From the IMG/VR virus record IMGVR_UViG_2541047874_000005: a stretch of DNA of 37,745 nt. One strand, 5' to 3'. This DNA is from a virus. Taxonomy: Duplodnaviria > Heunggongvirae > Uroviricota > Caudoviricetes. The notes under the pieces were generated by a model that was not told the origin of the DNA, did no database searches, and worked only from the letters and a program-made list of their open reading frames with translations. Of the stretch, positions 30,655-36,667 are shown one piece after another; within the stretch, counting starts at the first letter, position 1; each line of letters begins with the position of its first letter. The translations under genes and the position numbers were made by a program.

Positions 30655-31214
30655 GCGTTAGTTTCTCCACAGACACAAAACGCCACGACGCCCGGAGCTG
30701 CACACTCGCGGGCGTCACTCTTTTCTGGAGCGCAAAAGATTTTGTAGACCAGTGCTGCATGCTCCTGGAGCTTCGAAATTGACAGATACAACTCATCATT
30801 AATTGCTGTCTGCTCGTGTGGCTCCACTACCCCATCTTCGATTGCCGAACGAATCTGCTTTGAGTAACTCCCGATCTGTTCGATGACTTCCAGCAGGCGC
30901 TGGTTTATATCGGCGTTCTCTACTTCCTCAATTTCAGGAAGCGATACAAACACCCCACCAGCAGACTGTGCGACAGCATCCGCAATGTAGTGAGTGCCAG
31001 CCGCGCGCTGTAAAATCATTGCCCATCCCAGCGGGAAAATCTGATCGCCATCTGCACGAAGGCGGTTGAATAAAGCGTTCTCTGTTACATCCAGCCACTC
31101 AGCAGCTTCAGCGTAACCCCCCGGCAACGCCGCGATAGTTTTTCTGACAGCTTTCACGTACCACTCAGGCTGTTTTTCTACTTTCCAGTGATGCTTACCC
31201 ACGGTTAGCCTCAT
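30651..31214 (-). CDS. Putative CII-like regulatory protein (tentative)
   Basis: 187 aa, first gene after cro-like; family assignment by position and size only. Confidence 0.4.
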   Translation of the reverse strand: MRLTVGKHHWKVEKQPEWYVKAVRKTIAALPGGYAEAAEWLDVTENALFNRLRADGDQIFPLGWAMILQRAAGTHYIADAVAQSAGGVFVSLPEIEEVENADINQRLLEVIEQIGSYSKQIRSAIEDGVVEPHEQTAINDELYLSISKLQEHAALVYKIFCAPEKSDARECAAPGVVAFCVCGETNA

Positions 31215-31245
31215 CGTTCTGTGGTTAAAAATTGAAGGTGTTCTG

Positions 31246-31446
31246 TTAATCTTTCGGATAGATATCCGGTCTTAAGTCAGATTTCGTAATTGCACCTGAC
31301 GTGCATTGCTCAAGTTTTTTAGCCAGCACAAAACTGGCTTTTTTATAACCATTGAAAACCAGCCGTAAGTAGCCTGGTGTTGAGCCAACTTTTCCGGCCA
31401 ACTCGCCCTGCTGTTCTTTGGTTAAAGAGTCCCAATACGCTTTCAT
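31246..31446 (-). CDS. cro: Cro-like HTH repressor
   Basis: About 66 aa from the ATG at 31446 (GGAGGT RBS); HTH-like LAGKVGSTPGYLRLVF...AITKSDLRPD; divergent from cI. Confidence 0.6.
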   Translation of the reverse strand: MKAYWDSLTKEQQGELAGKVGSTPGYLRLVFNGYKKASFVLAKKLEQCTSGAITKSDLRPDIYPKD

Positions 31447-31536
31447 ACAATATGTACCTCCGATATACATATTACATGATTGAGATGAACCTTCAAGATA
31501 CTTGTACCCTATCGGTACAAAGGTTTTAATTTCGTT
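31447..31536. promoter_or_regulatory. cI-cro divergent promoter/operator region
   Basis: 90-bp intergenic region with palindromes: TTGTACC-ctatc-GGTACAA (31502..31520), TACAATATGTA (about 31446..31456), TTGAGAT/AGATAC half-site-like elements. Confidence 0.55.
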
Positions 31537-32211
31537 ATGAAAACAGTCCATGACATCCGGCGGTCTAACGCCAGAAAACTGAGAGATGGTGTTGGCGGGA
31601 ATTCTTCCTTTGCCACCATGATTGATCGCGAGCCAACCCAGACCAGCAGGTTTATGGGAGATGGTGCTACTAAAAATATCGGTGACAGCATGGCACGGCA
31701 CATCGAAAAATGTTTCGACCTGCCTGTCGGATGGCTTGATCAAGAACACCAGACAACAAACATCACAAAAAAACCTGATGTTTCAATTACTAACAAACAA
31801 ATAACGTTAGTCCCTGTCATATCATGGGTACAGGCCGGAGCATGGAAAGAAGTTGGCTATTCTGAGGTTGATTTGAGCACAGCAGAAACTTATCCCTGCC
31901 CTGTACCCTGTGGCGAAATGACTTATATCTTGCGGGTGATTGGTGATTCAATGATTGATGAGTACCGCCCGGGAGACATGATTTTTGTTGATCCCGAAGT
32001 CCCTGCCTGCCACGGTGACGACGTTATTGCATTGATGCACGATACAGGCGAAACCACCTTCAAGCGATTGATAGAAGATGGAACACAGCGTTATCTCAAA
32101 GCATTAAACCCAAACTGGCCTGAGCCTTACATTAAGATTAACGGTAATTGCTCTATAATTGGTACAGTAATTTTCTCAGGAAAACCAAGAAGATACAAAA
32201 TAAAGGCCTAA
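31537..32211 (+). CDS. cI: CI-type prophage repressor with S24 (LexA-like) autopeptidase domain
   Basis: 224 aa; C-terminal VIGDSM...GD...K and a QAG cleavage-site-like motif; N-terminal HTH-like region; divergent from cro. Confidence 0.85.
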   Translation: MKTVHDIRRSNARKLRDGVGGNSSFATMIDREPTQTSRFMGDGATKNIGDSMARHIEKCFDLPVGWLDQEHQTTNITKKPDVSITNKQITLVPVISWVQAGAWKEVGYSEVDLSTAETYPCPVPCGEMTYILRVIGDSMIDEYRPGDMIFVDPEVPACHGDDVIALMHDTGETTFKRLIEDGTQRYLKALNPNWPEPYIKINGNCSIIGTVIFSGKPRRYKIKA

Positions 32212-32222
32212 TCAATATTTAT

Positions 32223-32246
32223 AACCTGCTTCGGCAGGTTTTTTTA
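32223..32246 (+). terminator. Rho-independent terminator after cI
   Basis: ACCTGC-TTCG-GCAGGT hairpin followed by TTTTTTT. Confidence 0.7.
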
Positions 32247-32249
32247 TAC

Positions 32250-32286
32250 TTGACAATGTACCCTTGAGATACATAATGTATCTCAA
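32250..32286 (+). promoter_or_regulatory. PL-like early-left promoter with palindromic operator
   Basis: TTGACA (32250..32255), 16 nt spacer, CATAAT (32272..32277); perfect palindrome TTGAGATACAT-A-ATGTATCTCAA (32264..32286) overlapping the -10. Confidence 0.6.
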
Positions 32287-32760
32287 AGAAACATGCCACA
32301 GGCAAGATTAAACAAAATTTGGTTGTAACACGGCGTATGGCACATGCGTCGTTAGCGGTCTGGGGACGTTAAAGGGGACAATCCACTCCTTGCTCGGGCA
32401 AACAAACCAGGTAGCCGGAATGTGCAAGTCAATGATGATGCTGATAAGACGCCTAACCAGCGTGGCGGTTCGGTTTGACACCTGGGAAGAGACCAGGGTG
32501 CAACGATGAGGGCATTTATGGAACCGCGACAAAGTGTGGTGCCGTAACTGGCTAAGTGCTCTCAGCGTTGTGGTGAATGCGCAGGCTGATGCGCGAAAGA
32601 CATTGCAGCTAATGCGGAAAAGAGCTGTTCGGCGGGGCAATTAAACGCCCGTGAGAGTCTGAAATAACCGCAAGCCGGAGATCAGCACCGGTCACCACAA
32701 CAGCCACTGCTTTGGCGGTACCAGTTTGTACACTTGCTTCCGGCTGGTACCGTCCTTTTT
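32287..32760 (+). ncRNA. Candidate noncoding leader/sRNA from the PL-like promoter, ending in a DicF-like hairpin
   Basis: No ORF over 29 codons on + strand across about 450 nt after the promoter; terminal segment CTTTGGCGGTACCAGTTTGTAC resembles my recollection of the DicF core. Confidence 0.3.
32714..32760 (+). terminator. Strong intrinsic terminator hairpin (tL-like / sRNA 3' end)
   Basis: GGCGGTACCAG (32714..32724) pairs with CTGGTACCGTCC (32744..32755), 11 bp with one G.U, followed by TTTTT. Confidence 0.6.
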
Positions 32761-32897
32761 ACAAAACAGAGAAGAGCATCACCGGACGACGGGCTCATAA
32801 CCCAATCCATCCGGGCGGCTGCCACCGCAGGTGTTCTTCTCTGTTTTGTGGAGAAACTAATCGGCCTTGCAGGGTCGATATGATGAGGAGCAGCAAA

Positions 32898-33260
32898 ATG
32901 GCTAGCGAACGCAGTACTGATGTGCAGGCATTTATCGGGGAGCTGGACGGCGGCGTATTTGAAACCAAAATCGGCGCAGTTCTCAGTGAAGTCGCTTCCG
33001 GTGTGATGAACACGAAAACCAAAGGTAAGGTCTCACTCAACCTGGAAATCGAACCATTTGATGAGAACCGTGTGAAAATCAAACACAAACTCTCATATGT
33101 TCGCCCGACTAACCGCGGGAAAATTTCCGAAGAAGACACCACCGAAACGCCGATGTATGTCAATCGCGGTGGTCGCCTGACTATTCTGCAGGAAGACCAG
33201 GGACAATTACTGACTCTTGCCGGTGAACCTGACGGAAAACTCCGCGCAGCAGGTCATTAA
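32898..33260 (+). CDS. YfdP-like hypothetical protein
   Basis: 120 aa from ATG at 32898 (AGGAG RBS 7 nt upstream); same length and position as yfdP in the K-12 CPS-53 yfdPQRS cluster (recalled). Confidence 0.55.
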   Translation: MASERSTDVQAFIGELDGGVFETKIGAVLSEVASGVMNTKTKGKVSLNLEIEPFDENRVKIKHKLSYVRPTNRGKISEEDTTETPMYVNRGGRLTILQEDQGQLLTLAGEPDGKLRAAGH

Positions 33261-36394: not shown

Positions 36395-36667
36395 ATGAAC
36401 ACCTTGTTTTTACTGATGGCTGAATTCAATACCCCAAACATTGAACTCTCAGCAGTTAGTCAAAAATACTTTGGTATGAGTCCAGCCACAGCAGAAGCAA
36501 AAGCAAACGCTTGTAAGTTGCCTGTACCTACATATCGCATCGGTACATCACAAAAAGCAAAACGCTGCATCAACATTCAGGATCTTGCGGAATATATTGA
36601 CAAAAGACGGGAAGAAGGGCGAGCTGAGTGGGAAAAAGTCAGAACGGAAAAACAAAAATATAACTAA
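36395..36667 (+). CDS. Excisionase-like / PrtN-family DNA-binding protein
   Basis: About 90 aa from ATG at 36395 (GGAG RBS); LPVPTYRIG...INIQDLAEYIDKRREE matches PrtN/Xis-like winged-helix proteins; last gene of the early-left operon. Confidence 0.55.
   Translation: MNTLFLLMAEFNTPNIELSAVSQKYFGMSPATAEAKANACKLPVPTYRIGTSQKAKRCINIQDLAEYIDKRREEGRAEWEKVRTEKQKYN

Follow-up and report, generated by a model that had tools for sequence, protein, structure and literature searches.

Lambda, P22 and 434 have three operators at OL. HK022 is a lambdoid phage that lacks N, and its pL transcript starts with a functional RNA, the putL antiterminator; HK022 putL and putR are two-stem RNAs of ~70 nt. Phage 933W, also lambdoid, has an OL without a third site, and its repressor has been reported not to bind OR1 and OR2 cooperatively (PMC5977221). 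SfV and SfIV, which have the same region as the DNA described here, have been reported to have no N, cII or cIII homologues, and the SfIV paper treats operators only generically (PMC3851460). The GenBank record of SfV has a 'putative operator region' in the cro-cI interval, and that of Ayreon already marks a promoter and a terminator at the position that we analysed; operators at pL are annotated in none of the GenBank records of SfV, SfIV, cdtI, Ayreon, 2H10 and the Stx2c phages.

The cro-cI-pL DNA of these phages is 96–99% identical to that of the window (the whole stretch of 37,745 nt that was analysed). Across 31200-32950, identity is 99% to phage cdtI, and 96–98% to Stx2c-converting phages, Ayreon, 2H10, SfV and SfIV. 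Judged from its DNA, the prophage is lambdoid, with an immunity region of the SfV/cdtI/Stx2c type that has the following layout:

31246 to 31446, minus strand: cro (66 aa), an ORF divergent from cI, called cro in the SfV, cdtI and Ayreon records
31537 to 32211, plus strand: cI repressor gene (224 aa), encoding an N-terminal DNA-binding domain and a LexA/lambda-cI-type S24 autocleavage domain
32223 to 32247, plus strand: intrinsic (immunity) terminator of cI, with a 7-bp stem, a 4-nt loop and a T7 run
32250 to 32255, plus strand: −35 element of pL, TTGACA, a promoter in the Ayreon record
32272 to 32277, plus strand: −10 element of pL, CATAAT, made up of the end of operator OLa, one A and the start of operator OLb
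32295 to 32897: ORF-less leader, ~600 nt between pL and the first gene
32898 to 33260: ORF, first gene of the leftward operon

The cro product matched PHROG 35 ('transcriptional repressor') with an E value of 3e-15, and its Pfam matches, to YdaS/HTH_3, were weak. We detected a Peptidase_S24 domain in cI (Pfam, E 1.5e-26), which was also assigned to PHROG repressor families. The C-terminal domain of cI matched structures of the lambda cI C-terminal domain (PDB, E 2e-9), residues 1–76 matched Rep of phage SPC32H (PDB 5d50, E 0.0026), and residues 1–97 are 100% identical to cI of SfV, cdtI and the Stx2c phages. As expected of a lambdoid switch, the gene for a self-cleaving-type repressor is divergent from a gene for a small Cro-like repressor. 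Downstream of the cI stop codon (32211), a terminator-like stem-loop (32223-32240) is followed by TTTTTTT; this terminator is marked in the SfV and Ayreon records, and is kept in all relatives compared. The −35 element of pL begins 3 nt past the T-run, and TTGACA-16-CATAAT (32250-32277) has 11 of the 12 consensus bases and gave the top promoter match within 31000-33200, confirming the original prediction of a near-consensus promoter immediately after the cI terminator. From the position of the −10 element, we predict that pL transcription starts at ~32284-32285. We found no N gene preceded by nutL at the head of the pL operon: the first ORF (32898-33260) had no Pfam match at E ≤ 0.01 and PHROG matches only to families of unknown function (phrog_204), and ~600 nt without an ORF precede it. 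Regulators encoded nearby include a CII/CP76-like protein and an Ash-family protein.

Five copies of one symmetric operator motif are present in the immunity region, three between cI and cro and two at pL. The two sites at pL meet within a long palindrome:

31452 to 31470, unstranded: site a, ATGTACC-TCCGA-TATACAT, with 1 mismatch to the consensus; reference copy of repeat family D1
31485 to 31503, unstranded: site b, ATGAACC-TTCAA-GATACTT
31502 to 31520, unstranded: site c, TTGTACC-CTATC-GGTACAA, the repeat cited in the original prediction and the site nearest the cI start
32256 to 32274, unstranded: OLa, ATGTACC-CTTGA-GATACAT, with 0 mismatches; a member of family D1
32276 to 32294, unstranded: OLb, ATGTATC-TCAAA-GAAACAT, with 1 mismatch
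32264 to 32286, unstranded: 23-bp palindrome, made up of the last 4 nt of the OLa spacer, the OLa right half-site, one A, the OLb left half-site and the first 4 nt of the OLb spacer

The consensus of these five 19-bp, two-fold symmetric sites is ATGTAYC-N5-GRTACAT, and in all five the half-sites face each other across exactly 5 nt. An unsupervised and thus blind repeat search of 31400-32350 returned 20-nt direct copies at 31452-71, 31485-504, 32256-75 and 32276-95 as its largest family (D1), and paired 31503-19 with 32257-73 (family D4). We also trained a weight matrix on the three cI-cro sites alone, and scanned all 37,745 bases. OLa (24.0 bits) and OLb (19.4 bits) were the top-scoring non-training positions and the next scored 9.6 bits, although this test is not fully independent, since recognition of sites b and c drew in part on the pL sites. 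A search with the consensus found the five sites at 0–2 mismatches; at ≤3 mismatches there were 8 matches in the window versus 3.5 expected, and no shuffle reached 8. In the matrix scan, no third operator near pL scored above 5 bits, the best match within 300 bp being 4.9 bits at 32180. The best operator-like match outside the five sites, TGTACC-TACATATCGCATC-GGTACAT (36522-36548; 9.6 bits, 2 mismatches), is found within an ORF, 4.2 kb further downstream than pL, and is probably a chance occurrence.

OLa occupies the entire spacer between the −35 and −10 elements, together with the first 3 nt of the −10, whereas OLb spans the last 2 nt of the −10 through the predicted start. Of the ten half-sites, GAAACAT on the right of OLb is the weakest. 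We infer a similar relationship at pR, where the −10 is likely to be TAATAT: site a begins at the end of this element, which is the position that OLb holds at pL, and shares bases with the Shine-Dalgarno sequence of cro and with the start region of the putative promoter. The spacer of site b contains the putative pR −35 (TTGAAG, minus strand), and CAA (TTG on the minus strand) is kept in relatives. Sites b and c share 2 bp, with their centres 17 bp apart, and the junction ACTTGTACC is invariant in 19 relatives; with such tight spacing, occupancy of the two sites may be interdependent or mutually exclusive.

This locus is similar to lambda OL/pL in several respects. In both, an S24-domain cI gene is followed by a terminator and then by a strong co-directional promoter, copies of the cI-cro operator recur over the core elements of that promoter, a second early promoter downstream of cI, and adjacent sites have same-face spacing. 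There are also clear differences. The lambda/P22/434 pattern of three sites at OL is replaced by two sites, the operator is 19 bp rather than the 17 bp of lambda, and its copies cover the spacer and the start point, whereas those of lambda cover the −10 and −35. In addition, the locus has a 600-nt non-coding leader and no N gene, and the N-terminal domains of its cI and lambda cI have unrelated sequences. Phage 933W likewise has two OL sites, but its repressor family and operator sequence differ from those described here. In the pL region of HK022 (730-775 of locus L032, minus strand), ATGTAC-TATTG-GTACTT and ATGAAC-TTTAA-GTACAT have the same TGTAC/GTACA core as the sites in the window; however, the distance between half-site cores is 2 bp shorter in HK022, and its repressor is not a detectable homologue.

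The palindrome across the −10 element was the starting point of the original prediction, and its description was accurate: TTGAGATACAT-A-ATGTATCTCAA (32264-32286) is perfect over 11+1+11 nt, with the −10 hexamer inside. With up to 3 mismatches tolerated, the window contains no second copy, and 100 shuffles yielded 0 matches. The symmetry runs on imperfectly past the 11-nt arms to 19+1+19 nt, with 84% complementarity, a first sign that the palindrome consists of two adjacent copies of a larger symmetric unit. GATACAT, which ends OLa, mirrors ATGTATC, which begins OLb, and with 1 base between them these two half-sites generate a 15-bp palindrome by construction. The adjoining spacer 4-mers, TTGA and TCAA, are complementary in the window, lengthening the palindrome from 15 to 23 bp; in our reading, this complementarity just happens to be present in this lineage, by accident. 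The palindrome is thus best understood as the junction of tandem OLa and OLb, for which a second regulator is not needed. A striking perfect palindrome can arise as a one-base accident atop two ordinary sites.

To assess conservation, we used loci with cI relatives (73–100% identical) from species-representative genomes of ~15 genera and from Hafnia phage yong2, which gave a first set of 21 pL sequences. With further copies among IMG/VR loci, there were 30 distinct pL sequences, from genera that include Escherichia, Klebsiella, Hafnia, Pantoea, Edwardsiella and Rahnella. TTGACA, CATAAT and the spacing between them are invariant in the 30 distinct variants, supporting the proposal that this is an operator-controlled early-left promoter. 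Across 21 to 30 variants, the near-invariant positions are TTGACA, ATGTACC, GRTACAT-A-ATGTACC (which contains CATAAT) and the 16-nt spacing, whereas the two N5 spacers are free to vary. The −10 hexamer, which lies across GRTACAT-A-ATGTACC, accounts for part of the conservation of this block. The half-sites of the cI-cro sites are conserved in 19 distinct relatives. At OLb, the left half-site is nearly invariant, but the right half-site is weakly conserved, and is poorly conserved or absent in several relatives (e.g. loci L011, L014 and L016). Perfect arms around the central A are 5–8 nt long in 29 variants, and 11 nt long in the window alone (n = 30). In the nearest relatives, cdtI and Ayreon, position 32284 is A versus C in the window, giving 8-nt arms and a palindrome of 17 bp versus 23 bp. 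Mirror complementarity between the spacers averages 1.8 of 5 positions across the 30 variants, versus ~1.25 by chance. Together, the arm lengths, the near-chance complementarity of the spacers and the near-invariant half-sites indicate that selection acts on the half-sites and not on a long palindrome.

A more distant relative also carries the motif. Pseudomonas phage vB_Pae_CF3a, whose repressor has an N-terminal domain 58% identical to that of cI, has ATGTACC-TCCTG-GGTACAA in its repressor-cro intergenic region, indicating that the motif travels with the DNA-binding domain. Two further TGTAC-type sites lie in the same intergenic region (2414-2490 of locus L005). We found no TGTAC-type sites 3' of the repressor gene in this phage; the palindrome CTGTATATACAG occurs there twice instead. 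H-19B, with a cI N-terminal domain that is 41% identical, was dropped as a guide to the operators, its operator regions having no similar motif.

We considered three other explanations for the palindrome. The original prediction held that it was not an obvious copy of the cI-cro repeats (TTGTACC...GGTACAA), and hence that a regulator other than cI may bind it. As a separate operator, it could serve an antirepressor-linked regulator or a host factor, for example, and it is indeed perfect, statistically unique and placed over the −10, with other regulators (CII/CP76-like, Ash-family) encoded nearby. However, two full copies of the cI-cro motif are present at pL, and motif comparison found half-sites shared with the cI-cro region at the sequence level; these cI-type half-sites fully explain the conserved inner part of the palindrome. 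Across the 30 variants, there is neither conservation nor co-variation of the outer 4 nt of each arm, and the change at 32284 in cdtI and Ayreon already breaks the palindrome. We therefore consider a separate operator very unlikely: of the original interpretation, the early-left promoter stands and the separate regulator does not. It is somewhat less improbable, but still very unlikely, that the sites at pL are read in another register, with one dimer on the 15-bp GATACAT-A-ATGTATC and ATGTACC at 32256 as an extra half-site. The half-sites at 32256-62, 32268-74 and 32276-82 are near-invariant while the fourth (32288-94) is weak, which favours this register. Nevertheless, no such spacing occurs in the cI-cro region, where all three copies have the N5 spacing, and the sole head-to-head junction there, GATAC-TT-GTACC, is 3 bp tighter than GATAC-ATAAT-GTATC at pL. 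Moreover, it is rare for a single protein to recognise one half-site at two spacings when the distance between cores differs by 6 bp.

The palindrome could also act as a nucleic-acid structure, either as a cruciform or as a hairpin in cI read-through RNA that reinforces the terminator. The fold of 32256-32294 as single-stranded DNA has an energy of −7.9 kcal/mol and a z-score of −4.9 versus shuffles, but a good fold is automatic for any palindrome. The stem is AT-rich, is not followed by a U-run, and varies in length among relatives. Transcripts from pL could not form the hairpin, since their predicted start lies inside the right arm. We regard a structural role as extremely unlikely. A match to Rfam STnc50 on the minus strand, over the terminator and the palindrome, was rejected as a chance similarity that reflects just two hairpins (24 bits versus a gathering threshold of 55; E 0.45).

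We conclude that OL/pL is an ordinary lambda-type arrangement with previously unannotated operators, belonging to the SfV immunity group, and that pL is very probably shut off by two tandem operators for the phage's own cI and, by analogy, Cro. Each 19-bp ATGTAYC-N5-GRTACAT would be read by one repressor dimer, with OLa in the spacer between −35 and −10, and OLb extending from the −10 and centred on the predicted start site. The centres of OLa and OLb are 20 bp apart, about two helical turns, which would place two dimers on the same face of the DNA. Two such dimers could bind cooperatively through their lambda-cI-like C-terminal domains, excluding RNA polymerase, and SOS-induced self-cleavage of cI would then free pL. 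The right half of OLb is the weakest, and some relatives have it in degenerate form or lack it, so that OLb probably has low affinity and depends on OLa. It may be weak and rely on cooperativity, or be no more than a half-site in some phages. Our analysis supplies the missing OL annotation for an immunity type that is common to SfV, SfIV, cdtI and Stx2c-converting phages. ATGTAYC-N5-GRTACAT could be used to predict immunity groups and repressor targets in prophages of E. coli and Shigella, including toxin-converting prophages.

The ORF-less stretch between pL and the first gene (32295-32897) is a mosaic, and is widely shared. Its first element is a structured RNA:

32331 to 32532, plus strand: conserved pseudoknotted RNA of ~200 nt, the first element transcribed from pL (~+47 to +250)

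This leader RNA contains an invariant 19-mer, GGTAGCCGGAATGTGCAAG, at 32410. We identified it in at least 120 IMG/VR viral contigs and in 177 GenBank phage records, which include lambdoid, P1-like and epsilon15-like phages. In P1, it lies between a tRNA and ban/dnaB, and among epsilon15-like phages it is found in phiV10, SPN9TCW and EC.W1-9. It is also present in 1375 of 5426 complete E. coli genomes (~25%), and is annotated in none of them. Using 45 diverse copies, we derived a model with helices P1, P2, P3 and P4 and a pseudoknot that is 96.6% paired; when partners are slid by 1–3 columns, the paired fraction drops to 27–49%. In the same 45 copies, both partners have changed at 11 pairs (105 cells). 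From the G-U pairs, the RNA can be assigned to the pL strand.

The leader RNA had no match to Rfam 15 at E ≤ 1 in the leader of the window, and a scan of five related loci with Rfam detected flanking tRNAs only, with no match to the leader RNA. A literature search for an invariant 14-mer of this RNA returned irrelevant matches only. By eye, ACGGCG...CATGCGTCG...AGCG resembles HK022 put RNA. We rejected homology on the basis of a covariance-model search: with filters off, our model of the leader RNA (R1) found neither putL (L032, minus strand, ~640-715) nor putR (~1858-1930) in HK022 at E ≤ 10. The put-like resemblance is therefore not homology.

The leader RNA always heads accessory or early transcription units. 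We rejected the idea of a specific downstream partner gene, since the first ORFs downstream of it form many clusters that are unrelated to each other. A tRNA on the same strand abuts the leader RNA in 45 of 128 loci, either ~15 nt upstream or directly downstream (e.g. 1201-1515 of L033, 1124-1416 of L034 and 1201-1499 of L035), and in none of the 128 is there an opposite-strand tRNA next to it. These adjoining same-strand tRNAs suggest joint transcription followed by release through tRNA-processing enzymes. In 28 loci, a tRNA-Arg begins ~165 nt (164–230) after the invariant 19-mer, and 17 loci have a tRNA whose end lies 94 nt upstream of the 19-mer. Tentatively, the leader RNA might represent a class of phage RNA, cis-acting or processed, that has not been described before, although we consider this somewhat doubtful. 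One possibility is that it is an N-independent device that would carry pL transcription through a downstream hairpin (32714-32760). A role in carrying pL transcription into the operon is possible given that SfV and SfIV have been reported to be without N (PMC3851460). In phages that lack N, the leader RNA could matter more than the operators that we describe.

Three further elements lie in the leader downstream of this RNA. The hairpin at 32714-32760 (plus strand) is conserved and terminator-like, with a 13-bp stem in the fold and a 13-nt loop region, followed by CUUUUU. It is directly followed by a Y-shaped hairpin of ~100 nt (32756-32854, plus strand), which lies shortly before the first pL gene (32898). 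The outer stem of the Y-shaped hairpin has compensatory changes in 11 relatives (e.g. GC:5/CG:5 at one pair), and this region had no Rfam match in the window. In Hafnia phage yong2 (3367-3440 of L004), a tRNA-Gly(CCC) directly follows the counterpart of the Y-shaped hairpin, indicating that tRNAs recur at this place in related leaders. Lastly, a 40-nt stretch at 32552-32596 (AGTGCTCTCAGCGTTGTGG...) recurs with ~90% identity in many phages that are unrelated, among them HK620, several Klebsiella phages of 39–160 kb, and Erwinia and Cronobacter phages. In phiV10, EC.W1-9 and SPN9TCW, this stretch lies directly 5' of the 5' end of a tRNA.
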